Assembly: GCA_027007025.1 (NCBI GenBank)
Contig: JALTFL010000002.1
Coordinates: forward strand, 167,066-231,065
Direction: 5' to 3'
Length of the DNA: 64,000 bases
Source of the DNA: Nanobdellati archaeon
GTDB lineage: Archaea > Nanobdellota > Nanobdellia > CSSed11-243R1
Positions 4,512 to 25,454 of this stretch are shown here, piece after piece (position 1 is the stretch's first letter; every line of letters begins with the position of its first letter). The notes beneath the pieces were generated by a model. It worked only from the letters and a program-made list of their open reading frames with translations. It was not told where the DNA came from and ran no database searches. The translations under genes and the position numbers were made by a program.

Positions 4512-4688
4512 GGCCGCGTAGCTCAAGCACACCCTTCTTAAGAAGAAGCGTGTACGGAAGAAGGGGGGTGCGGCAAGGCGGTTAGAGCGGCAGCCTGTTA
4601 AAGAACCCTTTCTTAGAAAGAAAGCGTTCACGGAAAGAAGGGGTTGGCTGTAAGCTGTAGGTCGGCGGTTCGAATCCGCCCGCGGCCG
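4512..4688 (+). tRNA. tRNA-Asn(GTT), two introns
   Basis: Acceptor GGCCGCG/CGCGGCC with discriminator G. D-stem GCTC/GAGC. Anticodon stem GCAGC/GCTGT with loop CTGTTAA. Variable region AGGTC. T-arm GGCGG-TTCGAAT-CCGCC. Intron 1 is about 4529-4578 in the D-loop. Intron 2 is about 4602-4653 at 37/38. TATA CTTTATAAA at 4479-4487, about -27. Confidence 0.75.
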
Positions 4689-4708
4689 CTTTCTTAATTT
4701 ATATAAAT

Positions 4709-5866
4709 GTGAACCAGTTTCTTTTTCTTATGCCGTTTACGAATATATTTCACTGGATGCAGAAGCTGAACAAGGAACTTGAGGAAGTTTATCTGACGTT
4801 GTATCTTAGGAAATTTGCCATAACTCTCGCAGGCATATTTATTCCAATTTATCTTTATACCATAGGATACAATTTTGGCGAGGTAATTGCAGTTGTTGCT
4901 ATGATGTACGCCGCAAAGATAATCCTCTCCCCTGTTTCGCTGAAAGTGAGCGAGAAGATTGGCGTCAAGCACACTATAATACTGAATGTTCCTCTTTTGC
5001 TTTTGTTCCTTTGGATGCTTTACATGCTTCCGAATTATCCCCATTATATAGGATATTTAGTTGCTCCCTTAATCTCCGCGTCGAACATGTTTTTTTGGAT
5101 TCCCATCAACAGCATATTCGCGAGATACGCTCACAAGAAAAGAACGGGCAAGGAAACAAGCTATCTTATGCTTACGTCGCGCCTTAGCGGAGTAATAGCC
5201 CCATTAGTCGGTGGTATAATTCTAACCGAACTTTCCTTCAACTACTTGTTTGCCATTGTCGGGGCAATTATGTCATTGAGCCTTATTCCATTGTTTATGT
5301 CCAAGGATTACGGCTGCAAAAGAAAAGATGTAGGCATGAAGATGGTGGGTGAGCATTTTAAGTATTATGTCGTGTATTTTATACAGGGTATGCTTTCAGC
5401 TACAATATATCTTGTGATTCCCTTCCTTTCACTTATGCTTTTGAAATCTTATGTATCAGTCGGCTCGGTCTCAACGCTTTTGCTGGTCGGCTCGTTTTTC
5501 GTCATATTTGTTGTGGGAAAACTCACGGACAAGTTTGAAGGCAAGCACCTCATAAAAATCGGCGGTGTTGTTCTTTCAGCGTCCCTCTTGATTTTGGCTT
5601 ACGCTAAGTCACCGTGGGTGGTTTATCTTTCGGTTCTTCTTGTAGGTATCGGCGTGGTGATGGTGTTTCTTCCAATTTTTGCGATTTCATCTCTGATTGC
5701 CAAGAAATACAACGAAACAGAGTTCATGATGATGCGGGAAATTTTCCTAGCCGCCGGCTCCACGACTTTTCTTTTGTCACTGCTCATTTTCCCAGATTCT
5801 CTTAAAATAATGGCGGGACTTTTAGTATCCGCTTTGGTTTCGGTTTACTTTGTTTTTTTCAGGTGA
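4709..5866 (+). CDS. MFS-type membrane transporter (about 12 TM)
   Basis: Hydrophobic helices throughout. Start uncertain. Confidence 0.45.
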   Translation: MNQFLFLMPFTNIFHWMQKLNKELEEVYLTLYLRKFAITLAGIFIPIYLYTIGYNFGEVIAVVAMMYAAKIILSPVSLKVSEKIGVKHTIILNVPLLLLFLWMLYMLPNYPHYIGYLVAPLISASNMFFWIPINSIFARYAHKKRTGKETSYLMLTSRLSGVIAPLVGGIILTELSFNYLFAIVGAIMSLSLIPLFMSKDYGCKRKDVGMKMVGEHFKYYVVYFIQGMLSATIYLVIPFLSLMLLKSYVSVGSVSTLLLVGSFFVIFVVGKLTDKFEGKHLIKIGGVVLSASLLILAYAKSPWVVYLSVLLVGIGVVMVFLPIFAISSLIAKKYNETEFMMMREIFLAAGSTTFLLSLLIFPDSLKIMAGLLVSALVSVYFVFFR

Positions 5867-6089
5867 TATGATGGAAAAGAAGATGAAAATTGCAGCTTCA
5901 AAGACGGCTTTTGTTTTTGGGCTCCTTGTTTGGATTTATGTAATCGCGATGCAGATAGCACATCCAGAAAGCGTCAGCTGGACATTTACATCTTGGCTTA
6001 GAATTAGAATGGACTTTGTCGGAGAAATTTCATTTTTGATTTCCATAATCAGTTTTTTTGTTTGGCAACTAGTAACGCTTAAAAAGTAG
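5850..6089 (+). CDS. small membrane protein
   Basis: 79 aa with 2 predicted TM helices. Overlaps the upstream stop. Confidence 0.3.
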   Translation: MFFSGDMMEKKMKIAASKTAFVFGLLVWIYVIAMQIAHPESVSWTFTSWLRIRMDFVGEISFLISIISFFVWQLVTLKK

Positions 6090-6106
6090 TGATTTTTTAA
6101 CTCATT

Positions 6107-6817
6107 ATGGGGAAACTTGAAGAAATAACTACGGAGATAGCATCGGTAGATAATGTAAAAGGAATTGTTATCTTTGGTTCATACGTCACTTCTTTGTCGC
6201 CCAGAGATATTGATGTTTTGGTTGTGTTGGGCTCGGATTTTTTTTTAACAAATCCGGAGGATTACAAGCAAATTGCGTCGTCATTGTTTAAACATTCCAT
6301 ATTTCCATCATTAGATATAACAATAAAAACGGATAAGGAATTTGAGATTACAAATATTGTTTCCCTTTCAAGGGGTTTCCTCCAGCACTTAAACAATGTA
6401 GGCAACATAATCTATGATGAGATTGGTCTTGAGAAAAATATACTCAAGCGACTTACGGAATTAAAATCAATGGACGGGTACTGGAATGAACTTGGCGACT
6501 CGCTTTCAATAAGAAAAGAGTACCTTTCAAGTTTATTGGGCAAGGATTACTCGCTTTCAGCTAGATTTTACCAGCAGGCAGTTAGAGAAGTGATGAAACT
6601 GGAGTTTCCAGAAGAGTTAGATACCAAAGATAGTATAATCCAACTTTTTTATGATACTCTTTTTGAAAAAGTGGATTATGCTTCGTTTTTTGGAGAATCT
6701 CCTGAGTTTACAGTATATAGAGTTTTGAATGCATTTAGATATAATAACCCTAGTGTGTTAAAAGATGAGATTGAAAAGGCAATGTTTGCCATGAATTCAT
6801 ATCTTGTATCTGAGTAA
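6107..6817 (+). CDS. nucleotidyltransferase-domain protein (Pol-beta superfamily)
   Basis: GS...DxD motif: IVIFGSYVTSLSPRDIDVLVVLGSD. Confidence 0.55.
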   Translation: MGKLEEITTEIASVDNVKGIVIFGSYVTSLSPRDIDVLVVLGSDFFLTNPEDYKQIASSLFKHSIFPSLDITIKTDKEFEITNIVSLSRGFLQHLNNVGNIIYDEIGLEKNILKRLTELKSMDGYWNELGDSLSIRKEYLSSLLGKDYSLSARFYQQAVREVMKLEFPEELDTKDSIIQLFYDTLFEKVDYASFFGESPEFTVYRVLNAFRYNNPSVLKDEIEKAMFAMNSYLVSE

Positions 6818-7858
6818 TGCTCCAACTTGCATTTCAGCGAATCTCTCTCCGGCTTCGTGCTCCTGGGAAATAATCGTCACGCTTGCCCCGTTTTTTTCGG
6901 CGTTTTCCATCAAGTTATTCAGTTCATCAAACTTGTTTTCCTCTTTGAGCTTTTCGATGTAACTGTCTGATACCAGTAAAGACCCCACCGCTCCGTATTC
7001 GACTGCTTTCTTGACTTCCTTGAGTCCATACGTCGCGAGCCCATCTTTTGAAACTTCCTCGAAGAATTTTTCAACTAACTTAGTCTCCTCGGAAATTCTT
7101 CCGCCTCTTGCGACTTTTTCAACGGCGCCTCTCTTGATGAGTTCGTTTATGCCTGTTTTCCCATGAGTGGATATCTTGAATAGGTTAATCTTTTTCTTGA
7201 GCTCAGGAAATTTTTCGATTATCTTTTTGAAATTTTCTGACAGGAACCCGACTCCGCCGAACACTATTTTGTTGACATTGTTGTGCTTCGCAGTTTCCTC
7301 GAGAAGTCTTGCTAGTTCAGTTAGAAATTCCTCTCTGCTTTTGTCGTAGAGCTTTTGTGCTTCCTTCTTTTTTCCGGGAAGCGACTTTGTCAAGTCTGTT
7401 ATATATTCAATTCCGAATTCCTTAAGCAGTGCGATTGTAGCGTCGCCGTAATCTGCCGCGCACAAAATCAGTTTCGGCTTTTTAGTCGATTCGACAGCAT
7501 CTTTTATTCTTTTAATCTGCCAGTTCTGCCAGTTTTCTTTTTTTATTGACAAAATATTTCCCCTTTCAACTGTGATGGTGTGAAACACTCCGTGTGGAAC
7601 ATTTTGATTTGATGATTCCACAATAGTTCCAAGAAGCCTAAGGGTGTTTTTTTGGAATTCAACTTTTTCGACTTTCAGCTTAACCCTCAATTTTACTCTT
7701 TTTCCCTCTTGCTCATCTGTCTTTTTCACAATTCTTGTCGTTTCGCTTTCAATCTCGTCGTCTTTGTCTATTATTCTTGAGAGCACCCAAATGTCATCAA
7801 GAGTGTCCACCTTAACTTTTAGGATTCCCTCTTTTTTATCCTCAAATATTATTTTCAT
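6797..7858 (-). CDS. pelA: Pelota/Dom34 mRNA surveillance factor
   Basis: N-terminus MKIIFEDKKEGILKVKVDTLDDIWVLSRII is Pelota-like. Length 353 aa. No GGQ, so not aRF1. Confidence 0.7.
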   Translation of the reverse strand: MKIIFEDKKEGILKVKVDTLDDIWVLSRIIDKDDEIESETTRIVKKTDEQEGKRVKLRVKLKVEKVEFQKNTLRLLGTIVESSNQNVPHGVFHTITVERGNILSIKKENWQNWQIKRIKDAVESTKKPKLILCAADYGDATIALLKEFGIEYITDLTKSLPGKKKEAQKLYDKSREEFLTELARLLEETAKHNNVNKIVFGGVGFLSENFKKIIEKFPELKKKINLFKISTHGKTGINELIKRGAVEKVARGGRISEETKLVEKFFEEVSKDGLATYGLKEVKKAVEYGAVGSLLVSDSYIEKLKEENKFDELNNLMENAEKNGASVTIISQEHEAGERFAEMQVGALLRYKI

Positions 7859-7946
7859 GTTTAATTTTATTCCTATGGTATATATAAACTAAACTCTATT
7901 TTGGCGTCATAAAACTTTTATAAAAGATAAACTCCTTTTTCATTTT

Positions 7947-8078
7947 ATGGTGAGAGACGAGGAAAGTTTGGTATGCCCGAACTGTGGTTCTAAAGAAATT
8001 GTTTTGCTTGAGTCTACAGGCGAAATGTACTGCAAAAAATGCGGCACCATACTTGAAGAAGAGTTGTTGAGGGCATAG
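7947..8078 (+). CDS. small zinc-ribbon protein (TFIIB-type CxxC...CxxC, 43 aa)
   Basis: Missed by the ORF track. MVRDEESLVCPNCGSKEIVLLESTGEMYCKKCGTILEEELLRA. Confidence 0.45.
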   Translation: MVRDEESLVCPNCGSKEIVLLESTGEMYCKKCGTILEEELLRA

Positions 8079-8160
8079 ATTTATAGGAAAAGCCCAATAT
8101 TGTTTTTAATAGATTTTTTCATCCACTAAGTTTATTAACTTCAGGTTAATTCTAATTCAT

Positions 8161-8412
8161 ATGTGTCTAAAACAATGGAAAAAAATGGAACCCTGGATGC
8201 AGGATGGAACGGTAGGCTTCGCAGTCGGATTGGTTCTTTACATTCTTAGACTGTTAGGGATTACATTTCCGTACTTGTCCAACTGGAACGCCGCAAATTT
8301 ATCGTTGGGAGCAGTAGGAGTAACAATGGTTGTCGCATACACCATCATTGGTATTTTTATTGGAGAACTAATTGAGCAAACGACAGGCATTAAAAGAAAA
8401 CGAAAGAAGTAA
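8161..8412 (+). CDS. small membrane protein
   Basis: 83 aa, 2 TM. Confidence 0.3.
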   Translation: MCLKQWKKMEPWMQDGTVGFAVGLVLYILRLLGITFPYLSNWNAANLSLGAVGVTMVVAYTIIGIFIGELIEQTTGIKRKRKK

Positions 8413-9516
8413 TTACTTAATTAACATCAATGTTTGGTATAAAATACCAGTGGTAAAGATAAGAATAGAATAATATATCGGTAAGTTTCCGCCTGGAATA
8501 ATCTTTTTGAATTTCTTCGTTTTTCTTGCTTTTAGGGCCATTACCATAGTCAACAAGCCGAGCATTCCGCCGGCGTATGTACCTGAGATTTGAAGGAATG
8601 TTATGAAACCCAATTTGACATACACATAAATTAGAAATGGTATGAACGCTGAAAGGAACCATGACATCCTTTTGTCAAGTCCAAAGTCGTTTACATACAC
8701 ATGTTTTATCGCGTCAGACAATGCTATGAACGGAACACCCATTGCGATTAGCACGAACAAATCCCCCAATATTCTGTAATGGGGCAGTCCAACAACAGCG
8801 ACTTCATTTACGCCAGTTCCCAAGCTGCCGACAAAAACATACGAGAACAAGGCATATGTTGACAACACTATTAGCATTGCAATTGTGCTTGCGGTTATTA
8901 CCTTTCTTTTGTCTTTTCCAAGGACTTTTTTCATTTCAGGAATTACATTGTAACCCAGACATGAGAATAATACAATCCCGAAAGGAATGAATATCTTTGA
9001 TGAGCTTAAAATGAAATTCTGTGAATTGCTTGCAGATGGAATGAAAACTGCTATCAAAAACACCAGCAGAATGATTTTTAGCGCCGCAATCGACAAATCA
9101 AGCTTGTTGAACCTCTTGAAGCCGAACAAAATCAAAGCCGCAGCAAACACGAAGAATGCAGTTCCCATTATCAATGGGCTTCCGCCAAGCATGTCCGCAA
9201 GGGCATATCCAATTGCTATAAGGTATGCTATTATCGCGGTATATATACCGAACGTTTCTGTCGCGAGCGTGAAAAATTTTCCTTTTCTTCCGAAATACTT
9301 CTTGGCGAGTCCGGATATCATATGCTCCTTTTTTTCGTTAAGCGACAATTCTGCGATATAAAGAGTCATAAATGTTGTCGCAATTCCGACGATGATGATA
9401 GTCACTAAACCTGTCAAAAATCCAATTTGTGAAAAAATATAGGGAAATCCAAGAATTGAAGCGCCGGCCACTGTGCTGACCATGAGTGCAACTGCAGTAA
9501 AAAGCTTCGAGTTCAT
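8413..9516 (-). CDS. amino acid permease (Trp/Tyr-permease / AAAP-like)
   Basis: Polytopic protein similar to aromatic amino acid permeases. The start is trimmed to an internal Met (MNSKLF) because the longer ORF would overlap the tRNA 5' end at 9560. Confidence 0.5.
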   Translation of the reverse strand: MNSKLFTAVALMVSTVAGASILGFPYIFSQIGFLTGLVTIIIVGIATTFMTLYIAELSLNEKKEHMISGLAKKYFGRKGKFFTLATETFGIYTAIIAYLIAIGYALADMLGGSPLIMGTAFFVFAAALILFGFKRFNKLDLSIAALKIILLVFLIAVFIPSASNSQNFILSSSKIFIPFGIVLFSCLGYNVIPEMKKVLGKDKRKVITASTIAMLIVLSTYALFSYVFVGSLGTGVNEVAVVGLPHYRILGDLFVLIAMGVPFIALSDAIKHVYVNDFGLDKRMSWFLSAFIPFLIYVYVKLGFITFLQISGTYAGGMLGLLTMVMALKARKTKKFKKIIPGGNLPIYYSILIFTTGILYQTLMLIK

Positions 9517-9559
9517 ACATAGTAAAGCTTTTAATATATTTATATTATTTTCTAAGTAT

Positions 9560-9812
9560 GCTCCCATAGTCTAGGAACCCTTTCTTGGGAAGAAAGCGTT
9601 CACGGAAAGAACCAAGAGAGGGATGGACATTCCGGTCAAGGATGCTGGACTCTCGCAACACCCTTTCTTAAAAGAAAGCGTGTACGGAAAGAACTTCCGT
9701 GGTGTTGGGGATATCCAGTGACCCGGGTTCAAAAGCACTTTCTCTCTTTGAAAAGAGAGAACCTGCGCTAAGAGAGAAACTTGGCGAGTGTTTGAAAGTC
9801 CCGGTGGGAGCA
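9560..9812 (+). tRNA. tRNA-Glu(CTC) (probable), three introns
   Basis: Acceptor GCTCCCA/TGGGAGC with discriminator A. D-stem GTCT/GGAT. Anticodon stem CTGGA/TCCAG with loop CTCTCG..A. T-arm CCGGG-TTCAAA..-CCCGG. Introns about 9576-9633 (D-loop), 9656-9712 (anticodon loop) and 9734-9797 (T-loop). TATA-like AT tract 9526-9545. T-tract after 9812. Confidence 0.6.
9718..9804 (+). repeat. 87-nt T-arm+T-loop-intron module, identical to 24327..24413
   Basis: GTGACCCGGGTTCAAAAGCAC...GTTTGAAAGTCCCGG reads identically in tRNA-Glu and tRNA-Gly(TCC). A diverged copy on the minus strand lies at about 38235..38292. Confidence 0.8.
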
Positions 9813-9884
9813 TTTTTTCTTTTTAGAAAATGTAAAATTTTATGAAGAATTAAATAAAAGGTATTTAATTATAATAAGAAGTAG

Positions 9885-10232
9885 GTGATGATTATCAGTG
9901 GGTTTGGATATGGTATCAAAAAGAGTACAAGCGAAGTAATTACTGGAGTTGTTGCCACCTCAGTTTATGGAGTGTTAGCAAACATGGGATTAATTCCATA
10001 TGAGATAGTTTTAGTATTTAATGTATTATCTATACTAGGGGTAATATTCCTTATAGAGAAAGCTCCATTTTGGTCGCTAACTTACTTAATTGGCTGGGTA
10101 ATTGGTATAATTTTTATGATATCTGTGGGTCTCTTGAGTTGGGTTGATATTACCATTTATATTGCTGTATCAATAGTATCTATTATGATAAAACTGGGTG
10201 TTCTTAACAGTCACTCTTCTCACTCTATATAA
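9885..10232 (+). CDS. small membrane protein
   Basis: 115 aa, 3 TM. Confidence 0.3.
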   Translation: MMIISGFGYGIKKSTSEVITGVVATSVYGVLANMGLIPYEIVLVFNVLSILGVIFLIEKAPFWSLTYLIGWVIGIIFMISVGLLSWVDITIYIAVSIVSIMIKLGVLNSHSSHSI

Positions 10233-10292
10233 TTATTTATGGTATCATTACCTCAAGGAAATTGAAAATACTTTTCAATGTATAAAAAAGTT

Positions 10293-10520
10293 TTATCTAA
10301 TTTTTTTATACATATCACATAAGTAATCATATAATGAGAACATAAATAAAAATCCTACTGTTTCACCCATGAGCCCACCTAAAAATTCAGCAGATAAAAA
10401 ATATGATACTGTTGCGCCGCCAAGTACGGAAAGGAAGGTAGTGATGATAAATGCTAATCCTATAGAGATATACACTCTTACTTTTAATCTACTTTTGAAT
10501 GTTTCAGTTGTATTTTTCAT
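10293..10520 (-). CDS. small membrane protein
   Basis: 75 aa, 2 TM. Confidence 0.25.
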   Translation of the reverse strand: MKNTTETFKSRLKVRVYISIGLAFIITTFLSVLGGATVSYFLSAEFLGGLMGETVGFLFMFSLYDYLCDMYKKIR

Positions 10521-10593
10521 GTTAATGATTAAATGGTTTGAATTATTTAAATATTTTGATGTATGTCAATAATCTATTTTGTGAAGTAGTATT

Positions 10594-11742: not shown

Positions 11743-12100
11743 AGTTAGATAATGGCGCAAAGATGTTATTAAATGTATCGAATCCCTCTGCGACATAAAG
11801 AACATTATCTTTGACTTCAGCGATTTCTCCCCTTTTTGAAGGAAGTCCGCTGTTGGATTCAACAATGTTTTTGTAAATACCCTTAACAGATATGTTCTCT
11901 TTTGTGTTTTCAAGAGGTATCTCTGTGTAATTCACTCCGAGACTTGTTTTGCTGCGATTGTATACTACTAATTTCCCATCATCAGTTAATTCTATTGCGG
12001 AGTTCCAATCTCCTTCATAAAGCCTTTTTTCTATCTTGGACATCTTCTTGTTATCTTTTCCACCAAGGAGCTTAATTAACTCCTCATCAGTAGTAACCAT
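11726..12100 (-). CDS. hypothetical protein
   Basis: 124 aa soluble ORF. Confidence 0.35.
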   Translation of the reverse strand: MVTTDEELIKLLGGKDNKKMSKIEKRLYEGDWNSAIELTDDGKLVVYNRSKTSLGVNYTEIPLENTKENISVKGIYKNIVESNSGLPSKRGEIAEVKDNVLYVAEGFDTFNNIFAPLSNYEERR

Positions 12101-12172
12101 ACTATTTGAGAAGCATAACTCTTTTATAAACTTAACTATTTGGAAATTTAATAATCAGTCGGAGGTGATTAG

Positions 12173-12766: not shown

Positions 12767-12837
12767 TCCCCTTTCTTTTATTTTTTGCTTAGTAAACTTT
12801 TTAAGCGATTGTCACTCCTAATAAGTTAGGGTTTACA

Positions 12838-13488: not shown

Positions 13489-13505
13489 AGGGTAAAAATT
13501 TACAT

Positions 13506-13772
13506 GCGGGGGTGCCGGAGAGCCTTTCTTTCCGCCTTCTTAAAAAGAAGGCAGGTTGCCAAGAAGGAAAGAAAGAGCACGGAACGGTCAAACGGGCTGG
13601 GCTTAGGCGCATCTTTTCTTAAGAAGAAAAGCTGCACCAAAAGAAATCATTTTGGTGGATGCGTGGAAACCCAGTGGGTTAGTCCCTACGCGAGTAAGCC
13701 TTTTCTTGCGAAGAAAAGCCTTAAGGGAAAAGAAGCAGGATGGCTTCGCGATTTCGAATCTCGTCCCCCGCA
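13506..13772 (+). tRNA. tRNA-Leu(TAG), class II, three or more introns
   Basis: Acceptor GCGGGGG/CCCCCGC with discriminator A. Ser/Leu-type D-region (GCCGGAG...CGGTCAAACGGG). Anticodon stem CTGGG/CCCAG with loop CTTAGG..A. Long variable hairpin GGGTTAGTCCC. TTCGAAT T-loop. Introns about 13521-13584 (D-loop, looks nested), 13608-13668 (37/38) and 13695-13743 (T-stem/loop junction, with a clear 3-nt AGT bulge between CGCG and AAGCC/GGCTT helices). The T-stem has one mismatch. Confidence 0.6.
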
Positions 13773-13782
13773 TTTCATTATT

Positions 13783-13968
13783 ATGGCAAAGTGCAAATGG
13801 TACAATGTTTGTCCTATCGTGAGGTTTGTTGAGGAAGGCAGGCTCGATAGGAAGTGGGTTGAGAAATACTGCCTTGTTGGCAACAAAAAATGCATCCGTT
13901 ACCAAATGGAGGAAAAGGACGAGCCCCATCCTGACAATTTGCTTCCGGATGGAACTTACTTAAAGTAG
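13783..13968 (+). CDS. small Cys-rich protein (CxxxC...CxxxxxC)
   Basis: ATG directly after the tRNA. MAKCKWYNVCPIV...YCLVGNKKC. The longer track ORF 13504..13968 is an artefact that reads through the tRNA. Confidence 0.45.
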   Translation: MAKCKWYNVCPIVRFVEEGRLDRKWVEKYCLVGNKKCIRYQMEEKDEPHPDNLLPDGTYLK

Positions 13969-14002
13969 TTAACTTTTTAATTTAAGACTTCTTTTAGCTT
14001 TT

Positions 14003-16282: not shown

Positions 16283-16311
16283 TAAATTATTAAATTATTC
16301 AGCTTCTTGAA

Positions 16312-16914: not shown

Positions 16915-16932
16915 ATAAATACTGCTAGTATT

Positions 16933-17535: not shown

Positions 17536-17678
17536 TTTGTTAACTCAATTGAAAAAGCAAAAGGAAAAAAATTTTGAGGATAGGCTTAGATTTATTGATA
17601 TATGGGTAAATTTTGTGAAAAAACATCCTAAGAAAAGCAGCAAGCAGTATAAAAAATTATTAGATAGTTTGTATTAAA

Positions 17679-18878: not shown

Positions 18879-18897
18879 AAGTGCCATTTTAGAGTAG

Positions 18898-19461
18898 TTG
18901 CATATGGGAATTGGGGAAGCTTTGAAAACACTCTTTGGCGAAAGTGAAGATAAAACACTAAATTCTATTCTTGAAATAAGCTCCATATTCACGAATGCAT
19001 TTGACAAATTTACATTAACCGGACGCCTGGCGGTTGATTTACATTTTGATAAAATGTTCCCTGCCGCTAGTGAGGTTGAATTATTGAGCACTATTAATAA
19101 AATCAATCCTGCCGTTAATCACATACTTGATAGGGGTTACAAAATTCAGTCAGTTGTACATGGCGATGAATTTTACAAAGTTAACCTTGGGAAAGAAAGG
19201 TATAACATTACTATTTATGCGTTTTCCGCTTTGCCGAATACAATAAAGGACTCTGAAAAGAAGATGATTAAATACAATGATACGGCGTATGATATTTTGC
19301 TCGCAAGCCCGGAGGACATTTTTTTGGTAGGGTTGCTTTATGATAAAACTTATCATACTTTAATGAACGAAATAAACAAGGAGAAACTCTTTAAAAAATA
19401 TAATAACTTTTCAGAAGACTTAAAGGATAGAATGGATAAAAACTTTAATCTAAATCAATAG
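18898..19461 (+). CDS. hypothetical protein
   Basis: 187 aa. Confidence 0.35.
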   Translation: MHMGIGEALKTLFGESEDKTLNSILEISSIFTNAFDKFTLTGRLAVDLHFDKMFPAASEVELLSTINKINPAVNHILDRGYKIQSVVHGDEFYKVNLGKERYNITIYAFSALPNTIKDSEKKMIKYNDTAYDILLASPEDIFLVGLLYDKTYHTLMNEINKEKLFKKYNNFSEDLKDRMDKNFNLNQ

Positions 19462-20433
19462 TTTCCCTTTGTCATATATCAACCTAAAATTGCCTTTTTT
19501 TATCGCTATTAACTTAGCGTTTGTTAACAAATAATCCTCATGGTCGTTACAGTAATAAATCGAGCCGAATTCTCTGCTTGGTCCCCTTGCGATGTGCAAT
19601 CCTCTTTTCTCGCTTTCGAGGATTTCTGCGGTTGGATTTGAGTTTATGTTAAATCCAAGTCCAAGTTCGCCAATAACATCCCCATACTTGTACATTTTAG
19701 CGCCCTCTTTTAGGATTTTTTCCATCTCTTTGTCTTTGCTTTCAATGTTCACAACTTTTCCGTTCTCCCATGTGACAATTACTGGCTCTTTTAAGAGATG
19801 TTCCCCTGCTCGATATTCGACATACATCTTTCCGTTTGTCATATCCTCAATTGGTCCCGTGAATATTTCTCCGGCGGGGAGATTTCCAAATCCTCTTTCT
19901 TCGACAGTTAAATCATCAAGCCATCTCCTGTCGCCTATGAATAGATCTAGCTCATACTCTCTATTCGGTCCAGATAGAACTTTGAAGACATTGTAATTTT
20001 TCAGAATATTCTTTAGCCTAAGAGCATCTTGCTTCATTTGAGTATAATTTATATCAAATGGACCATTATTTCTGAGCATTTCTTCAGTTATACCGGGGCA
20101 GTGCGCAATTTTCCCTATTTTTTCCAATTCTGTTAGCAGTTGAATTCTCATTGGGCGCTCTTCCGAAAATGCTTCAAATAGTGTGATTGTTAAGTCCGGC
20201 TGTATTTCATTTATTATATGATCTAATTCTGTTGGAATTTCCTTAAGAGGTCTTTTGTAATTATCAATTTCAAAATTAGTTATCTCTCCATCAAATTTGC
20301 TTTTAAGGATTGCATCTTCGAAGGCGTCAACAACAGCTTTTTTATGTTTGTCTTGAACTATTAAAATTCTCTTCGTATTTTGAATTTCGTAAATCGCCTC
20401 AAGTGCGCTTTTTAACCCTTCAGTAACACTCAT
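19450..20433 (-). CDS. aminopeptidase, M29 (AmpS/aminopeptidase T)-like
   Basis: C-terminal LGLGFNINSNPTAEILESEKRGLHIARG resembles M29 family motifs. Confidence 0.45.
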   Translation of the reverse strand: MSVTEGLKSALEAIYEIQNTKRILIVQDKHKKAVVDAFEDAILKSKFDGEITNFEIDNYKRPLKEIPTELDHIINEIQPDLTITLFEAFSEERPMRIQLLTELEKIGKIAHCPGITEEMLRNNGPFDINYTQMKQDALRLKNILKNYNVFKVLSGPNREYELDLFIGDRRWLDDLTVEERGFGNLPAGEIFTGPIEDMTNGKMYVEYRAGEHLLKEPVIVTWENGKVVNIESKDKEMEKILKEGAKMYKYGDVIGELGLGFNINSNPTAEILESEKRGLHIARGPSREFGSIYYCNDHEDYLLTNAKLIAIKKGNFRLIYDKGKLLI

Positions 20434-20494
20434 AAAAACACCCCTATTACTATATATCAGTAACTAATTTATATTTATTCCCATTTTAGCTATT

Positions 20495-20713
20495 ATGATA
20501 ATCAAAGTAAAAGTTGTTCCAAAATCCTCAAAAGTCTCTGTTGAGCAAAGAGACGATGTTCTCCATGTCAAGTTAACCGCTCCTCCGGACAAGGGCAAGG
20601 CAAACAAGCAGTTGGTTGAAGTTTTAGCCCGACATTTCGGCGTCAAGAAGCAAATGGTTAAAATTTTAAAAGGCGAAACATCTCATAATAAAGTAATTGA
20701 AATTGAAATTTAA
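20495..20713 (+). CDS. DUF167/YggU (UPF0235) protein
   Basis: KVKVVPKSSK...VKLTAPPDKGKANKQLVEVLARHFGV is diagnostic for the family. Confidence 0.7.
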   Translation: MIIKVKVVPKSSKVSVEQRDDVLHVKLTAPPDKGKANKQLVEVLARHFGVKKQMVKILKGETSHNKVIEIEI

Positions 20714-20786
20714 TGCCTCAGCACCGCCTTCTTAGGAAGAAGGTAGGTTGCCAAGAAATGCCTCGGTGGCATGATGTTGAGGTGAT
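20714..20786 (+). other. structured tRNA-Thr 5' leader with intron-like motif and pseudo 5'-half
   Basis: GCCTCAGCA (20715-23) can pair with TGTTGAGGT (20775-83). It encloses CCTTCTTAGGAAGAAGG-TAGGTTGCCAAGAA, a homolog of the element inside the tRNA-Leu D-loop intron. It also carries a duplicate of the tRNA 5' end, GCCTCGGTGGC, at 20760-70. Confidence 0.5.
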
Positions 20787-20940
20787 GCCTCGGTGGCGCA
20801 GTCGGTAGCGCGTAAGCCTTTTCTTTCCGTAAGAAAAGCATTAAGGGAAAAGAGATGGCTGTGCAGTTGCTTGGTAATTGGCTGCGTTTGGAAGCTTTCC
20901 AATGAGCAAAAGGTCGTGGGTTCGAATCCCACCCGAGGCT
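20787..20940 (+). tRNA. tRNA-Thr(GGT), two introns
   Basis: Acceptor GCCTCGG/CCGAGGC with discriminator T. D-arm GCGC-AGTCGGTA-GCGC. Intron 1 about 20813-20865, after position 26. Anticodon stem GTTGC/GCAAA with loop TTGGTAA. Intron 2 about 20878-20905 (28 nt, 37/38). Variable region AGGTC. T-arm GTGGG-TTCGAAT-CCCAC. Confidence 0.6.
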
Positions 20941-21030
20941 TTTATATATGCACTGTCTTATGTTAATTTTAACATTTTACAAGTGGTTACAAATAATAAT
21001 GCTTATAAATCAGCATTTTGTTATCCAACT

Positions 21031-21264
21031 ATGGGGCAAAAAGAGTTAGAAACTTTATTGAAAGAAGCAGGAATTGAAAAAGGAGATTTTGTTAAAATTT
21101 CTTTGAGGAATAAAGATTATCCAGTTTTTGGATATGTTAGATATATTTCTAATCGTCCTGTAAGCACAATTGTGTTTAATAAGGAAATAAACCAATATGA
21201 ATTTGGTGAAGAGGGTTATTTTGTTTATCTTGCTTTGTATCCTCCGGAAGAACTTAACCAATAA
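21031..21264 (+). CDS. hypothetical small protein (78 aa)
   Basis: Internal ATG downstream of the tRNA. The upstream part of track ORF 20878..21264 overlaps the tRNA. Confidence 0.35.
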   Translation: MGQKELETLLKEAGIEKGDFVKISLRNKDYPVFGYVRYISNRPVSTIVFNKEINQYEFGEEGYFVYLALYPPEELNQ

Positions 21265-21403
21265 CACATATATTATCAATGATTTCTGAAAATGCATATG
21301 GTGTGTTTTTTGATAGGAATATAAAATCTATAAAAAAGATAAACCCAAATATTTTGGAAGAATTATGATAATTTTGGTTTAACCCAACGCTTTATTATTC
21401 TTC

Positions 21404-21814
21404 ATGGTGATAACATTTTTAAACAGAAATTCTTTGTGTTACTTTATGACTTATTTGCAATTTATAATGGGTATTGGAAATCCTATTGTTGATGGGATAT
21501 ACTTCCCTCTGTACTTTGAGAACCACAAGGAGTTTGTACAATATATAAAAAGTAATCATCTTACTTATTTAAGATATGAGGAACTTCCTGCTTTGACGTT
21601 GGAATCCACATTCGCCGAAAAGGATGAAGAGATTAAAAAAATACTTAACGAGGCGTCCGCGGACACGTCTATAGTGGAAGTTTTGCATAAAGGTAGCAGA
21701 CTTTTTCCAAAGAGTATGGGAAGATATGTGGCAGATGTAACACCAATTAAGTTTAATCTAAATGAAAATTTTATAAAAATGAGTGGTATTTCAATGAAGT
21801 TGTCTGATTATTAA
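21404..21814 (+). CDS. hypothetical protein
   Basis: 136 aa. Confidence 0.35.
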   Translation: MVITFLNRNSLCYFMTYLQFIMGIGNPIVDGIYFPLYFENHKEFVQYIKSNHLTYLRYEELPALTLESTFAEKDEEIKKILNEASADTSIVEVLHKGSRLFPKSMGRYVADVTPIKFNLNENFIKMSGISMKLSDY

Positions 21815-21948
21815 ATGCTCTAGTTGAGTTTTATTTTATTCTTGAAGCGTAAGTCATATAAACCTATGCAAAGTGGATTATTTGTCGTAAGGCGCTAAAG
21901 CGCGTGCTAGTTCTTTGCGGCGGAAAAATTAGTAAAAGGTGAAAAATT

Positions 21949-22146
21949 TTGGAAGGAACTGTAAAATTTTATAACAGCAAAAAAAGATTCGGATTTATAT
22001 CCGGAGATGACGGAAAAGATTACTTCTTCCACTTTAGTGGAATAGAAAGAGGGGAGTTTGTCAAAGACAACGACAAAGTTTCCTTTGAGGTAGTAGAGGG
22101 CGACAAAGGTCCTAAAGCAGAACACGTGAAAGTAATTAAAGAGTGA
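21949..22146 (+). CDS. csp: cold-shock protein (CspA family)
   Basis: GTVKFYNSKKRFGFISGDDGKDYFFHFSGI matches the RNP1/RNP2 motifs. TTG start, with AGGTGA SD 8 nt upstream. Confidence 0.8.
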   Translation: MEGTVKFYNSKKRFGFISGDDGKDYFFHFSGIERGEFVKDNDKVSFEVVEGDKGPKAEHVKVIKE

Positions 22147-22187
22147 ATTATATTTTCTTTAAATTTTTTATTTTTTTATAGCTTTTG

Positions 22188-22817
22188 CTAAATATCTTGA
22201 AGTAGGATAGCATCTAAGTTAATTGGTATAACATTTCCATTTTTATCTATTAATCCTTTTTTCTTTAGTCTGTTTATACTTTCATCCTCTATTGGGATAC
22301 CATTACGTACGGCTTTATATTCTTCAAAAAGTCTAGGTGTTTCTTCACGCACGTATATTACAGATGAGTAGGCATTCACAAGTTCACTGTTGATTATTAA
22401 CTTTCCTCCTTGTCTCTTAAGTAATTCTAACTCCAATGCTGTAGAAACTGTTGGGTCATTTCTACTCTTGTAAGTGTCATTACCGCTATCAATCATCATT
22501 CTTAGTATACCAACAATAGATTTAATTGATTTGTATCTTCTCCTTTTGCTTGCTACTTCTTTTTTTATTGATTCTACTTCCTTATATGGCAAAAATTTTT
22601 CTATTTCGTATAGCTCATCATCTATTTTTTCAAGAATTCCAACGTCATTTAGAATTGTGATTAGTCGTTTAACATAGTCCCTACTTACTTTTTCATTTGG
22701 CTTTGAAATTTTTCTTAGATAATTTAAGAGCTCATCTTCTGAAAATTTTGTTATCCCATTGTCTTTAATAAAATTGTATAATTTTTCTATAGTCTCCTGT
22801 GGTGAGTGATACCCCAT
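22188..22817 (-). CDS. hypothetical protein
   Basis: 209 aa. Confidence 0.35.
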   Translation of the reverse strand: MGYHSPQETIEKLYNFIKDNGITKFSEDELLNYLRKISKPNEKVSRDYVKRLITILNDVGILEKIDDELYEIEKFLPYKEVESIKKEVASKRRRYKSIKSIVGILRMMIDSGNDTYKSRNDPTVSTALELELLKRQGGKLIINSELVNAYSSVIYVREETPRLFEEYKAVRNGIPIEDESINRLKKKGLIDKNGNVIPINLDAILLQDI

Positions 22818-22858
22818 ACATCCATCAAGGGGTATACTATTTTAAAACTTTACTATTC

Positions 22859-23287
22859 CTAAGAGATGACATCAATGACTTTTATTTTAAAATTTAGTGT
22901 CTTACCTGCTAGTGGAGGATTCAAGTCAACAGTTACTTTTTCATCCCCTATCTTTGTAATTCTCGCGGGCAATTGTCCCAAGTTTGGAACATCAATTCCA
23001 ATCGTCGCTCCTTCCTTCAATTCCATACTTTCGGGGAACTGCTTTTTTGGTATCTCAGCTATAAGCTCTGGGTTTGGCTGCCCGTACGCCTTTTCAGGAG
23101 GCAATTTAACATCCTTTTCTTCTCCCTTTTCCATACCTATTACAGCTTCTTCAAATCCTTTTATCAAGCTGCCGTCTCCGACCTTGAACTCCAGGGGCTG
23201 CTGCCCTTTGTTTGTGTCAAATACAGTCCCGTCTTCTAGTGTTCCTGTATACTCTACTTTTACTATATCTCCTTCCTTAATAGCCAT
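22859..23287 (-). CDS. FKBP-type peptidyl-prolyl cis-trans isomerase
   Basis: MAIKEGDIVKVEYTGTLEDGTVFDTN...FKVGDGSLIKGFEEAVIGM. Start set to the internal ATG with AAGGAG SD. The track extends to 23362. Confidence 0.75.
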   Translation of the reverse strand: MAIKEGDIVKVEYTGTLEDGTVFDTNKGQQPLEFKVGDGSLIKGFEEAVIGMEKGEEKDVKLPPEKAYGQPNPELIAEIPKKQFPESMELKEGATIGIDVPNLGQLPARITKIGDEKVTVDLNPPLAGKTLNFKIKVIDVIS

Positions 23288-23300
23288 TATATCAACTCCT

Positions 23301-23603
23301 TTACTTCCCAAGAATTTTTGAGAAAAATGATTTTTTGGTTTGTGGATGTAACTTTCTGTCAATTAAATCCACTACTTTCTCTTCAGTTATCTCTCCTCTT
23401 ATCATCTCACCATCAACAAACACCGCTGGAACTCCGAGCAAGTCATATCTTGCTGCCTTTGCCTTTCCTTCAGGTGTTGTTGTTCTATACTTATGAAAAT
23501 CTATTTCATCTCCCTTAAACTTTTTTCTTGCCTTCGCCACGGCGAGCTTAGCCGCTGGACAATGAGGGCAATTTGGAGAAACGAACAATTCCACTAATAC
23601 CAT
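23301..23603 (-). CDS. thioredoxin/glutaredoxin-like protein
   Basis: CPHC active site, then VPAVFVDG. Confidence 0.65.
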   Translation of the reverse strand: MVLVELFVSPNCPHCPAAKLAVAKARKKFKGDEIDFHKYRTTTPEGKAKAARYDLLGVPAVFVDGEMIRGEITEEKVVDLIDRKLHPQTKKSFFSKILGK

Positions 23604-23629
23604 ACTACTTTTTCCAAATTAACTCTTTA

Positions 23630-23845
23630 TTAATCTTTTGTAAAACTTCTCTTTGCGCCGCATTTCGGGCAAACCTGGGGAGGAATAGATGGTGCCCTTT
23701 GGTATGGTAATACATAACCACATTTTTTACATCGCCATTCTGCCATAGACGTTACTTTATTGTCATCCTTTAAATCATTTGTGTGAGAATCTTTGATAAT
23801 TTGTCCCTCTTTGGTGAAATTATAACTTGTATCAATATAAATCAC
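23630..23845 (-). CDS. rubredoxin-like zinc-ribbon protein
   Basis: CKKCGY...CPKCGA pair of CxxC knuckles. Confidence 0.4.
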   Translation of the reverse strand: MIYIDTSYNFTKEGQIIKDSHTNDLKDDNKVTSMAEWRCKKCGYVLPYQRAPSIPPQVCPKCGAKRSFTKD

Positions 23846-23888
23846 AACATTTAAAAAATGTCAATTTAATTTTTAGTTTGGTGATAAA

Positions 23889-24173
23889 GTGGCAGTAGTT
23901 GAGAGAGTGTTTTATGTTGAGAAGAAAGATGTATTTGACAATGATGCGCTGAAAATGCTTGGGTTTAAGTATGAAAGCGCGGCAACTTTGGGCGAGGACA
24001 AGTCCGGATATTTTATGATAATAAAAGCAGATGAAAACGAGTTTGACAAAGAAGAAATAAAATCCGCTCTTAAGGACACAACGGAATTGAGCGGAGAAGA
24101 AAAACAGAAAATAATAAATAAGTTTAAAGAAATTGAAGATAATGCAGCAAGCGGCTTTGCCATGTTTGATTGA
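23889..24173 (+). CDS. hypothetical protein
   Basis: 94 aa, acidic. Confidence 0.35.
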   Translation: MAVVERVFYVEKKDVFDNDALKMLGFKYESAATLGEDKSGYFMIIKADENEFDKEEIKSALKDTTELSGEEKQKIINKFKEIEDNAASGFAMFD

Positions 24174-24182
24174 TGTTTTTGT

Positions 24183-24421
24183 GCGCCGTTAGTCTAGCGA
24201 CCTTTTCTCTCGAGAAAAGCTCGACCAAAAGAGAGAAGGTTGGACAATGGTTAGGATCCGAGCCTTCCACCAACCCTTTCTTTCCAAAAGAAAGCGTTGA
24301 CGGAAAGAAAGGTAGGAGGTGAGCTCGTGACCCGGGTTCAAAAGCACTTTCTCTCTTTGAAAAGAGAGAACCTGCGCTAAGAGAGAAACTTGGCGAGTGT
24401 TTGAAAGTCCCGGACGGCGCA
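24183..24421 (+). tRNA. tRNA-Gly(TCC), three introns
   Basis: Acceptor GCGCCGT/ACGGCGC with discriminator A. D GTCT-AGC..GGTTA-GGAT. Anticodon stem CGAGC/GCTCG with loop CTTCCA..A. Variable region TGAC. T-arm CCGGG-TTCAAA..-CCCGG. Introns about 24199-24248 (D-loop), 24270-24321 (37/38) and 24343-24407 (T-loop). T7 tract after 24421. Confidence 0.7.
24327..24413 (+). repeat. second copy of the 87-nt T-arm+intron module
   Basis: See 9718..9804. Confidence 0.8.
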
Positions 24422-24477
24422 TTTTTTTCTTTTTTAAAAAACCAAAATTTAAAAAGAGGGTTAGTTGTTGATTTAAT

Positions 24478-25257
24478 GTGGAAAATCTGAGGGATTTGTT
24501 CAGCGAAGTAAAGAATCTAAGAGACAAAAAAAGGAACATGCTTGATAAGATTAGAGTAATTAATAATTCTATTCATACAAAGATGGAAAAAAAGAAGGAA
24601 ATTGCCAAGATTGTCAAGAAAAACAAAGGAGAGCGAGATAGAATTGTAGAAGAAATCAAGAAATTGATGGAGAAATTAAAAAGCATACCAAAGTCAGATA
24701 TCAAAGAGGATCCTAGAAGGATAAGAAAATTGATTGAAAGACTTGACTGGAAAATCCAGACAGAAGTTATGCCATACAAGAAGGAGCAGGAGCTCACGAA
24801 GAAGATAAAGGAACTACAGGTGCAGGCGGAGGAGCTTGAAAAGAAATACATAGGCATGAGAGAAAGGGGCAAAATAGAAAACGAAATCAAGCATCTGGAA
24901 CAGGAAAAGAGACTGCTTCATTCAACAGTCATCTCATATTCAAAGCAGTGGAAGGAGATTCATTCTGAAATCGAAAGTTTGATGGAAAAGAAAAACGAGC
25001 TTTTCAAGAAGATGGATGAGATTAATTCTAAAGTAAAAGAAATTGATGCCAAGATAGATTCTGTTAAGAAGGAAATTGGCAGGGAAAAAGCCAAAAGGAT
25101 AGAAGCCGAAGTTTTGGAGAGGGAAAAACGCAGCAAGATAATCAAAGACAAAATAAATGAAAAATTGCTTGAAGTCAAGGAAAAATTCAAGCATAAGAAG
25201 AAGCTGACAAAAGATGATTTGATGATACTCCAAGCGGCAGACGAAGGAATAATCTAA
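24478..25257 (+). CDS. K/E-rich coiled-coil protein
   Basis: 259 aa of heptad-like low complexity. Confidence 0.4.
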   Translation: MENLRDLFSEVKNLRDKKRNMLDKIRVINNSIHTKMEKKKEIAKIVKKNKGERDRIVEEIKKLMEKLKSIPKSDIKEDPRRIRKLIERLDWKIQTEVMPYKKEQELTKKIKELQVQAEELEKKYIGMRERGKIENEIKHLEQEKRLLHSTVISYSKQWKEIHSEIESLMEKKNELFKKMDEINSKVKEIDAKIDSVKKEIGREKAKRIEAEVLEREKRSKIIKDKINEKLLEVKEKFKHKKKLTKDDLMILQAADEGII

Positions 25258-25333
25258 AAGCACCTTCTTAAAGAGAAGCTGCACCAAGAAAAGAAAGTTT
25301 TATCAAAGAAATTATTTATAATAAATACTAAAA
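25258..25333 (+). other. intron-like element between ORF stop and tRNA-Gly(CCC)
   Basis: CCTTCTTAAAGAGAAGCTGCACCAAGAAAAGAAAG is homologous to the anticodon-loop intron of tRNA-Leu (13611-13648). Confidence 0.5.
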
Positions 25334-25454
25334 GCGCCACTAGTCTATTGGTAGGATACGAGCTTCCCAAGACCTTTTCTTTGGGAAAGAAAAGCTCTAC
25401 CAAAAGAAAGGTTGTAAACAGCTCGGGAGCCGGGTTCGATTCCCGGGTGGCGCA
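25334..25454 (+). tRNA. tRNA-Gly(CCC), one canonical anticodon-loop intron
   Basis: Acceptor GCGCCAC/GTGGCGC with discriminator A. D GTCT-ATTGGTA-GGAT. Anticodon stem CGAGC/GCTCG with loop TTCCCAA. Intron about 25371-25420 (50 nt, 37/38). Variable region GGAG. T-arm CCGGG-TTCGATT-CCCGG. Confidence 0.8.

Follow-up and report, generated by a model that had tools for sequence, protein, structure and literature searches.

The DNA analysed here, called the window throughout, is a 64,000-nucleotide (nt) stretch of contig JALTFL010000002.1 (assembly GCA_027007025.1) from a Nanobdellati archaeon. It contains a group of transfer RNA (tRNA) genes interrupted by 16 short introns, nearly all of which carry a small structured module that also occurs outside tRNA genes. 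On the unspliced 64 kb, ARAGORN made no tRNA call and so found none of the at least seven tRNA genes in the window, nor did it call any in the four closest loci from metagenome-assembled genomes (MAGs), L001-L004 (L001 is Dive96_bin10.467, L002 is AUK188, L003 is AUK136, and further L-numbers denote other fetched loci or metagenome contigs). An Rfam scan of the window gave a single tRNA match, a tRNA-Thr with a long insert (46.3 bits). The seven genes were established by reading the sequence and by self-BLAST; six lie on the plus strand (Asn, Glu, Leu, Thr, Gly-TCC and Gly-CCC) and one, Ser-GGA, on the minus strand. Of the more distant DPANN loci with tRNA genes, most have intact ones.

The 16 introns were placed by hand, guided by the intact tRNAs of these more distant loci and by the bulge-helix-bulge (BHB) rule, in which each strand has a 4-nt helix followed by a 3-nt bulge that is cut after its second base. 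A brute-force enumeration of BHB-like site pairs combined with ARAGORN accepted many wrong combinations with wrong anticodons and was dropped in favor of hand curation. In the spliced products ARAGORN called seven of seven tRNAs, each with the anticodon that was expected: GTT for Asn, CTC for Glu, TAG for Leu, GGT for Thr, TCC and CCC for the two Gly genes and GGA for Ser. The central BHB helix, H, has four of four pairs in 10 introns, three in 4 and two in 2, the inner helix, h', has 3-12 base pairs (bp), and both are present at all 16 junctions, although this test is not independent, because the rule itself partly guided the choice of splice sites. Minimum-free-energy (MFE) folds show a BHB-type stem in most introns. 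The introns are 28-66 nt long and interrupt the tRNAs at positions 15/16 (four genes), 27/28, 37/38 (all seven genes), 53/54 and 59/60 (three genes). No match to a group I or group II core or to a C/D box small RNA was found in them with Rfam, either at the gathering threshold or with E up to 10. We infer that the inserts are archaeal BHB introns, their excision being predicted.

In the following description the letters A to F denote intron families that are compared below. The tRNA-Asn(GTT) gene (4512-4688, plus strand) has introns at 15/16 (4527-4576, a variant of A) and at 37/38 (4601-4652, A), both with three of four pairs in H and with 10-11 bp in h'. The tRNA-Glu(CTC) gene (9560-9812, plus) has three, at 15/16 (9575-9630, A), 37/38 (9656-9712, A) and 59/60 (9734-9798, F), and H is complete in all of them. 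The three introns of tRNA-Leu(TAG) (13506-13772, plus) lie at 15/16 (13521-13584), where an outer pyrimidine/purine stem surrounds a family D module, at 37/38 (13608-13668, E) and at 53/54 (13695-13752, C). The tRNA-Thr(GGT) gene (20787-20940, plus) has introns at 27/28 (20814-20866, C) and at 37/38 (20877-20904), again with a complete H in both; the second, of 28 nt, has no module and matches no family. A first-pass annotation of the same DNA had put the family C intron of this gene after position 26. The intron is present, and a strict application of the BHB rule moves it to 27/28, which leaves a perfect anticodon stem (TTTGC/GCAAA). The tRNA-Gly(TCC) gene (24183-24421, plus) has introns at 15/16 (24198-24247, B), 37/38 (24270-24321, A) and 59/60 (24343-24407, F), with H complete in all three, and the tRNA-Gly(CCC) gene (25334-25454, plus) has a single one at 37/38 (25370-25419, B). 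The tRNA-Ser(GGA) gene (38201-38394, minus) has introns at 37/38 (38356-38314, B) and 59/60 (38281-38216, F); at 38394-38201 it falls outside the span of 4529-25420 that the first-pass annotation had given for the recurring introns. Three mechanically predicted open reading frames (ORFs), at 13504-13968, 20878-21264 and 4377-4631, overlap intron-rich tRNA genes and are easily mis-annotated as proteins; downstream of tRNA-Leu a genuine small ORF seems to begin only at about 13785.

The first-pass annotation had sorted the introns into six subfamilies that recur in different tRNAs at different positions, and all of the family motifs that it listed were found at the places given. We scored local alignments between introns against 100 dinucleotide-preserving shuffles. 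Z was 10.6-17.5 within family A (4.1-12.5 for the variant, Asn intron 1), 6.9-14.3 within B, 13.4 for C, 16.3 for D, 6.4 for E, the lowest of all families, and 23-33 for F. The F copies of Glu and Gly-TCC are identical over 65 of 65 nt and that of Ser is 92% identical to the Glu copy, and the D module in the leader of tRNA-Thr is 91% identical over 34 nt to the core of Leu intron 1. Families A and B each occur at both 15/16 and 37/38, and family C at both 53/54 and 27/28. Similar introns in different tRNAs and at different positions are therefore related by descent, as Z values of 6-33 show.

These values bear on the reading that the resemblances reflect mere low-complexity purine/pyrimidine composition, and that the apparent introns are assembly artefacts or the genes pseudogenes. 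The tracts are indeed of low complexity, and the genome, at 37% G+C, has many A-rich purine runs. The same Z values, taken against shuffles that preserve dinucleotide content, nevertheless stand against it, as do the order of the motifs and the covariation of their helices, and all seven genes give perfect cloverleaf tRNAs once the introns are removed. The tRNA loci are moreover 99.97-100% identical among three independent public assemblies (NCBI GCA_015522785.1, a Logan contig and an ENA scaffold), which shows that the unusual genes are not assembly artefacts. We give this explanation practically no weight. Among these assemblies of the same organism, 99.97-100% identical as they are, no strain-level presence or absence of introns was found.

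A side-by-side comparison showed that 15 of the 16 introns share one architecture. The module, of about 40 nt, consists in order of a segment f (3-4 nt), a C, a pyrimidine run Y, a loop of 2-5 nt, a purine run R1, a C, a segment f', a turn and a second purine run, R2. R1 is complementary to Y, giving a hairpin P1 of 7-10 bp, and f' is complementary to f, giving a helix P2 of 3-4 bp whose sequence is free but covarying; a conserved C.C mismatch separates P2 from P1. The turn after f' is AC(C), ACGG or AGGG. The families differ chiefly in f/f', which is GAAC/GTTC, ACAC/GTGT or CAAC/GTTG in A, CGA/TCG or AGA/TCT in B, TAAG/CTTA in C and GCA/TGC in E and F. Isolated modules of all five families tested fold into P2, mismatch and P1, with R2 single-stranded. 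No family in Rfam matches the module.

A search of related genomes and metagenomes for the same families, as the first-pass annotation had envisaged, found the module in several named MAG loci and in 94 contigs of a metagenome collection scanned with the family-A core AGAAAGCGTNNACGGAAAGAA; 84 of the 105 core matches in the fetched loci have the complete upstream hairpin. In 77 unique family-A copies, P2 has 4 bp, and at its two variable positions the bases pair in 97% of cases, compared with 47% after permutation (maximum 59% in 2000 permutations), while the C.C mismatch is kept in 75 of the 77. The gapless alignment of 19 family-A sequences (A4) has 99.6% of its cells paired and 18 cells changed on both sides, and none of 500 shuffles reached the observed paired fraction, the count of double-sided cells or the covariation score. 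Two MAFFT alignments of unequal-length modules (A1 and A2) misaligned the 5' halves and were not used for structure counts.

A covariance model, also named R1 but distinct from the purine strand, was built from the 19 family-A copies only and run unfiltered over the whole window. This model R1 found the four family A introns with E values of 1e-13 to 1e-18 (4e-14 for the second Asn intron, at 4602-4642), and it also matched the Gly-CCC B intron (3e-8), the Leu C intron (8e-8), the Asn variant (4528-4565, 3e-7) and the Leu E intron (3e-7). Weaker matches were those of Thr C (1e-4), Gly-TCC B (0.02) and Ser B (0.02). A model made from family A alone thus recognises B, C and E as well: a single structured module is common to all families. 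Over the whole window no full-length match on the sense strand at E < 0.05 lies outside the tRNA genes, and three opposite-strand matches at E < 0.05 lie within them too. In an alignment of 45 hits from the window and the named MAGs, 10 of 12 pairs of P1 and P2 show changes on both sides, and the paired fraction of cells is 97%, compared with 80% in shuffles (0 of 500 reach the observed value), this alignment being fitted to the model and biased towards it.

The second purine run has an unusual orientation. R2 is the purine strand R1 read backwards, a mirror, and is neither a repeat of R1 nor a Watson-Crick partner of Y. Asymmetric examples are AAGAAAAG with GAAAAGAA in family C, GAAAAGAAG with GAAGAAAAG and AAAAAGAAAG with GAAAGAAAAA in L030, and GAGAAAGAAA with AAAGAAAGAG in Leu intron 1 of L002. 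Among 42 unique copies drawn from all families, the longest mirror match exceeds the longest direct match in 28, and the reverse holds in 3 (Wilcoxon, 5e-6). R2 and P1 vary in length together within family A (Spearman 0.74). An A stands at position 9 of R2 in 17 of 17 copies that have a ninth P1 pair and in 11 of 53 that do not (Fisher, 3e-9), and the figures for position 8 are 53 of 53 and 9 of 19 (Fisher, 2e-7), p-values that are generous, since related copies are not independent. R2 is extended on its 3' side, which fits a strand running antiparallel to R1 along the hairpin and not Watson-Crick pairing with Y. In register with its complementary pyrimidine strand the module has a homopurine mirror repeat, and its geometry is that of an intramolecular triplex, of the purine.purine-pyrimidine type on the sense strand and of the pyrimidine.purine-pyrimidine type on the complement, so that a triplex fold, in RNA or in single-stranded DNA, may be predicted from the arrangement of the three tracts. 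The covariation of the mirror tract nominates the module as a natural candidate for a purine-type intramolecular triplex.

Two other accounts of R2 and its surroundings were considered and rejected. Watson-Crick pairing between Y and R2 as the reason for R2 cannot explain the mirror orientation, the length covariation on the 3' side or the presence of R2 in intergenic copies. A general pseudoknot between loop and tail (P3) was seen only in three related copies (L063, L066 and L128), in which the hairpin loop is complementary to the bases right after R2, as in a pseudoknot with a connecting strand along the stem.

The module and the predicted splicing fold make use of the same bases. The 3' tail of the introns is variable, from 0 to about 25 nt, and it contains a segment complementary to f and the C run, which makes h', and four bases complementary to the exon, which make H. 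Since P2 and h' both use f, the module fold and the BHB fold are mutually exclusive. In the MFE folds of the compact introns (Asn 1 and 2, Glu 1, Gly-TCC 1, Gly-CCC and Thr 1), Y pairs with R2 or with a third purine run, and the pairing of Y with R2 makes the h' helix; in the longer ones (Glu 2, Leu 2 and F) P1 persists within h'. Some introns have no module, namely the Thr 37/38 intron of the window and a variable-arm intron of L001 and L002, so that the module is no requirement for splicing.

In every module intron the module starts between -1 and +2 nt from the predicted 5' splice site, and it is in sense orientation in 15 of 15. Both features speak for mobility at the level of RNA, in which excised introns would be re-inserted at BHB-like sites by a reversed endonuclease and ligase reaction and then fixed by reverse transcription and recombination. 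The tails that form H and h' argue otherwise, as they differ among copies of one family, so that the shared unit is the module and not the spliced intron.

Copies of the module outside tRNA introns bear further on this question. According to Rfam, copies lie inside archaeal small-subunit (SSU) ribosomal RNA (rRNA) genes in L044, L087, L107 and L110 and inside archaeal large-subunit (LSU) rRNA genes in L052, L059 and L068. L121 and L132 have the same 16S flank beside the module as well as SSU rRNA matches, and the 16S intron of L121 forms a perfect BHB by hand (ACTG/CAGT and CACACCC/GGGTGTG). The occurrence of one element in BHB introns of tRNA, 16S and 23S rRNA genes alike is a further point in favor of RNA-level mobility. 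We also observed that rRNA genes are over-long in two module-bearing contigs, L110 (4316-6122 and 800-3978) and L052 (4570-6639 and 27-4093), with SSU genes of 1807 and 2070 nt compared with 1478 nt in the Rfam model and an LSU gene of 4067 nt compared with 2987 nt, which implies several introns per rRNA gene. In L110 an archaeal RNase P RNA lies beside the rRNA operon, and at least one module-bearing lineage thus has this RNA.

Other copies lie where splicing is neither possible nor needed. In L095 the module is 28 nt 3' of a 5S rRNA gene, and in L075 it directly follows a tRNA 3' end. Modules abut stop codons in L073, in L076, in L002 (after the AsnRS gene) and in the window, where a degenerate E-like copy (25259-25298, plus strand) adjoins the stop codon of the ORF at 24478-25257, about 35 nt 5' of tRNA-Gly(CCC). 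The Z value of this copy against Leu intron 2 is 6.4, and its match to model R1 is weak (E = 0.29). The first-pass annotation had called it a leader copy of tRNA-Gly(CCC), but it stands 5' of a TATA-like AT-rich stretch (judged by eye) and is an intergenic or 3' untranslated copy. Tandem arrays with a 55-nt period and without BHB potential occur in L076 (three units; 3520-3710, minus strand), L073 (1340-1460, minus strand), L061, L098 and L090. The arrays consist of two to three identical units, each a module plus an 11-12 nt spacer, about CGCAATTCCATA, and begin at the stop codon of the upstream gene. Many intergenic copies also have a second hairpin 3' of the module, whose base is conserved (GAATT...AATTC) and whose inner stem varies with covariation (L058 11262-11330, L067, L075 7870-7930, L080, L084, L101, L115 and L123), which suggests a longer composite element. 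In L075 (7796-8135) the tRNA 3' end TTCAAATCTCGGCGCGGGCA, the module and AACAAAAAAATG are duplicated about 200 nt downstream with unrelated sequence between, an arrangement that resembles the attachment-site remnants of an integrated element. Among the named genomes, model R1 has matches only in the window, L001-L004, L006, L007, L015, L018 and L030. Viral contigs scanned with the A and B/E cores contained no genuine copy, the three B/E matches having no hairpin.

Comparison of orthologous sites showed that intron content turns over fast between sister genomes. The tRNA-Glu gene of AUK188 (L002, 15640-15828) has the 15/16 and 37/38 introns in common with the window at 96% identity, and its T-loop is intact, with no F intron. 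In L001 and L003 the gene has no 15/16 intron, other family types at 37/38 and no 59/60 intron, and that of L001 has a T-stem intron and a leader module. The Glu F intron is most simply read as a recent gain. The F introns of Glu and Gly-TCC also have identical T-arm flanks (16 nt on the 5' side and 6 nt on the 3' side), which together with the 65/65 identity fits gene conversion. The T-arm intron of tRNA-Leu is at 53/54 in the window (C) and within the T-loop elsewhere, of type A in L002 and L003 and of type B in L001, and the variable-arm intron of this gene occurs only in L001 and L002. In tRNA-Thr the 27/28 C intron is common to the window and L139 and absent in L140, and the 37/38 introns of these three genomes are three unrelated sequences. 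The Leu 37/38 intron is orthologous in four genomes, being of type B (CGA/TCG) in three and of type E (GCA/TGC with an 11-nt insertion) in the window, which indicates that a family label can change by compensatory substitution. Part of the family signal is therefore compensatory evolution of helix P2 in orthologous introns, and the six subfamilies of the first-pass annotation, while reproduced as groupings, are not discrete but variants of one module.

Further observations concern neighbouring genes at orthologous sites. In the window (3095-4688) tRNA-Asn lies about 60 nt 3' of the gene for its own synthetase, asparaginyl-tRNA synthetase (AsnRS). In AUK188 (L002, 10001-11360) a lone E-type module abuts the AsnRS stop codon and no tRNA is present there. 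The Dive96 genome (L142, 1754-2539) has no tRNA-Thr at the syntenic position, and a phage-integrase family gene lies about 1.2 kb away.

Conservation of the fold together with such turnover bears on the possibility that the module is a structured RNA with a function for the host, such as 3'-end protection, termination, a processing signal or a platform for a protein, and that its copies resemble one another through selection and concerted evolution. The strong conservation of sequence and fold over many metagenomes, with compensatory changes, would fit such a role, and so would the copies placed directly behind stop codons, 5S rRNA and tRNA 3' ends and the Leu 37/38 orthologs, which keep the fold as P2 shifts from CGA/TCG to GCA/TGC. 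A host function is difficult to reconcile with introns that must splice without a module (Thr 37/38 and the L001/L002 variable-arm intron), with the differing presence at orthologous sites of close genomes, with identity that reaches unconstrained loop and linker bases (65/65 in F), with the competition of the module and BHB folds for the same 5' strand in compact introns, and with the lack of model R1 matches in most of the more distant DPANN loci, whose tRNA genes are mostly intact. On balance we consider this explanation rather unlikely.

Several leader copies carry marks of events on DNA. In the leader of tRNA-Thr (20713-20786, plus strand) a D module (20722-20757) stands between 9-nt direct repeats, ATGCCTCAG (20713-20721) and ATGCCTCGG (20758-20766); the second repeat runs on into an incomplete copy of the tRNA 5' end as far as 20771, after which come 13 nt of spacer and AT. 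In L139 the leader is the same except that it has neither the first repeat nor the module, so that L139 represents the empty site. In tRNA-Glu of L001 the module is flanked by an 8-nt repeat (GCTCCCAT-module-GCTCCCAT), and in L096 and L130 two units of GCTCCGTTCGTC and module precede the real tRNA 5' end, with 12-nt repeats in L096. A duplication that includes the first tRNA bases regenerates an intact gene 3' of the insert, which would explain the survival of leader copies. Intron copies have complementary ends (AACCC/GGGTT, AAGCC/GGCTT or GACC/GGTT); h' of the BHB needs the same complementarity, and intergenic copies such as that of L076 do not have it. The 5' end of tRNA-Thr was also duplicated in an older event (ATGCCTCGGTGGC), and between the two copies lies a spacer of 13-15 nt (window 20772-20786; L139 3705-3685, minus strand) that is conserved between the two species as TGATGTTGAGGTG and GAAGGTATTGAGGCG and may be a decayed earlier insert.

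The first-pass annotation had taken homologous introns at non-homologous positions as the signature of transposition or homing through the splicing machinery. This is not borne out, since copies lie where splicing is impossible or unneeded and leader copies are flanked by duplicated target DNA. The same two facts tell against RNA-level mobility: many copies (after stop codons, behind 5S rRNA and tRNA 3' ends, and in tandem arrays) have no possible BHB, and leader copies are flanked by duplicated DNA. No reverse transcriptase was seen among the window ORFs scanned. In its favor, apart from the orientation, placement and rRNA introns described above, an RtcB ligase is present, and the mechanism of the precedent in Thermoproteales is called unknown, although the review PMC4090602 favors gain at the DNA level. 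We regard RNA-level mobility as improbable.

Spread at the level of DNA fits better than homing through the splicing machinery, because copies are unsplicable by position, leader copies have direct repeats and a relative has the empty site. We think it probable that the introns are of the BHB type and organised around a single small structured repeat, a non-coding element that is common in part of the DPANN archaea, and that the families are sub-lineages of this element, blurred by P2 compensation and by replacement of copies at the same site. Module copies would arise on DNA by insertion or duplication, sometimes with the target duplicated as direct repeats, and they would also pass by gene conversion from one tRNA gene to another with common arm sequences. 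The variable 3' tail would supply H and h', so that the splicing endonuclease of the host could excise the insert, after which RtcB could reseal the tRNA. Copies would persist only where they are harmless, either between genes or where BHB splicing removes them. We suggest more tentatively, as a possibility that we would not yet favor, that modules with P2, P1 and a mirror tract form an undescribed class of element, a self-triplexing hairpin that spreads as DNA in DPANN and creates BHB introns, an archaeal counterpart of introners whose fold is recognised by the propagation machinery.

Several results weigh against the proposed DNA-level element. Direct repeats occur only at leader and trailer copies, and their lengths vary (8, 9, 12 and 13 nt). 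A target-site duplication at the true introns was sought by hand and rejected: matches range from 0 to 5 of 6 positions, with high values confined to self-complementary 4-mers. Both the direct repeats and the tandem arrays could alternatively stem from structure-induced local duplication. Among the roughly 40 window ORFs scanned and in the gene table for 14.5-30.3 kb, neither a transposase nor a reverse transcriptase was seen, and no splicing-endonuclease gene either. The orientation of intergenic copies relative to flanking ORFs gave no clear signal, the counts being small and mixed, and does not separate a function at the RNA level from one at the DNA level. The deep conservation of the module, with covariation, argues that the fold is under selection and could mean a host function and not a selfish element. 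Splicing and the exact splice sites are predictions, several sites being ambiguous by 1-3 nt, and purine-motif triplexes are reported to form poorly with RNA strands.

The proteins encoded around these genes are archaeal (pelota, NreA, RadA, a ribosomal protein cluster, SecY and Cbf5), and the AsnRS of the window shares 87-89% identity with proteins from three DPANN MAGs (L001, L002 and L003) that bear the label Nanoarchaeota or "archaeon". An RtcB tRNA-splicing ligase is encoded at 60798-62285 on the minus strand (Pfam PF01139, E = 6.7e-175); once BHB cleavage has taken place, this enzyme would be expected to ligate the exons and to circularise the introns. A second RNA ligase candidate, at 1657-2328 on the minus strand, has 223 amino acids and an ATP-dependent RNA ligase domain (PF09414, E = 1e-24), and it could be relevant to RNA circularisation or repair. 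The protein between the two tRNA-Gly genes has too few homologs for a comparison of those loci.

Several known systems resemble the module in part. Miniature transposable elements with inverted repeats (MITE), repetitive extragenic palindromes (REP) and palindrome-associated transposable elements (PATE) are short, non-coding, high-copy hairpin repeats that are mostly intergenic, and some are moved by single-strand transposases of the IS200/IS605 type. The module is likewise short, non-coding, high-copy, hairpin-forming and mostly intergenic, in tandem or in clusters; its intron copies have complementary ends (AACCC...GGGTT), and a tetranucleotide by the foot of the hairpin pairs with a nearby one. 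It differs from these elements in that no partner transposase was seen among the window ORFs scanned and in that its flanking repeats vary in length (8-13 nt) and are absent at true introns. To our knowledge a mirror-repeat third tract is no feature of MITE, REP or PATE elements, and spliceable residence in tRNA and rRNA genes is untypical of them. The introners of algae and fungi are reportedly DNA transposons that create spliceosomal introns, as described by Huff, Zilberman and Roy in 2016. The likeness is one of analogy only, in that mobile DNA survives in genes by carrying or creating signals for host splicing, with the spliceosome in that case and the BHB endonuclease and RtcB in ours.

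The geometry of the module also has parallels. Mirror repeats of the H-DNA type (GAA.TTC) form intramolecular triplexes, and the element for nuclear expression (ENE) of MALAT1 and PAN forms an RNA triple helix. The module shares with these structures one pyrimidine strand and two purine strands, the third being antiparallel, identical to the purine strand of the duplex and matched to it in length. In contrast, an ENE uses two U-rich strands and one A-rich strand, and the sense strand of the module would have to form a triplex of the purine.purine-pyrimidine type, one that is well established in DNA and not in RNA. In a literature search of incomplete coverage, no account was found of the module, of intron elements shared by DPANN tRNA and rRNA genes or of a triplex-type intron motif. 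Transposition of introns is already known; what appears to be undescribed is the module, together with its triplex-like mirror geometry and its spread outside introns.

The origin of the BHB introns in archaeal tRNA and rRNA genes is an open question, and Thermoproteales showed movement without a mechanism. In that order near-identical introns in unrelated tRNAs and positions have been taken as large-scale transposition (Fujishima et al. 2010, as cited in PMC4090602 and PMC10714607), and intron gain was inferred from the comparison of close species, the mechanism being called unknown and thought to act on DNA. The introns described here are similar in that highly similar copies occupy different tRNA genes and positions and are present or absent at orthologous sites (the Glu F intron is absent from L001-L003 and the Thr 27/28 intron from L140). 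They differ in their host, a DPANN archaeon with 37% G+C and so of another superphylum than Crenarchaeota, in their single covarying module with a mirror tract (some Thermoproteales families may have internal structure as well) and in the occurrence of the module in rRNA introns, trailers, leaders and intergenic tandem arrays. The locus provides handles on the question in a well-defined, recognisable element of about 40 nt whose fold can be tested, in copies inside and outside spliceable sites, in filled and empty sites and in some target duplications. In DPANN archaea whose splicing endonucleases have an "L3" loop, more tRNA genes are reported to be disrupted and predicted tRNA sets to be incomplete (PMC5829648), and that paper describes no intron sequence families or conserved module of the kind found here. 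The two cases agree in that ARAGORN misses seven of the seven genes in our window: the tRNA complements of such DPANN genomes are systematically under-called and the clade will be badly under-annotated, and a model of the module could find and mask tRNA introns, together with matching rRNA introns that distort 16S-based surveys.

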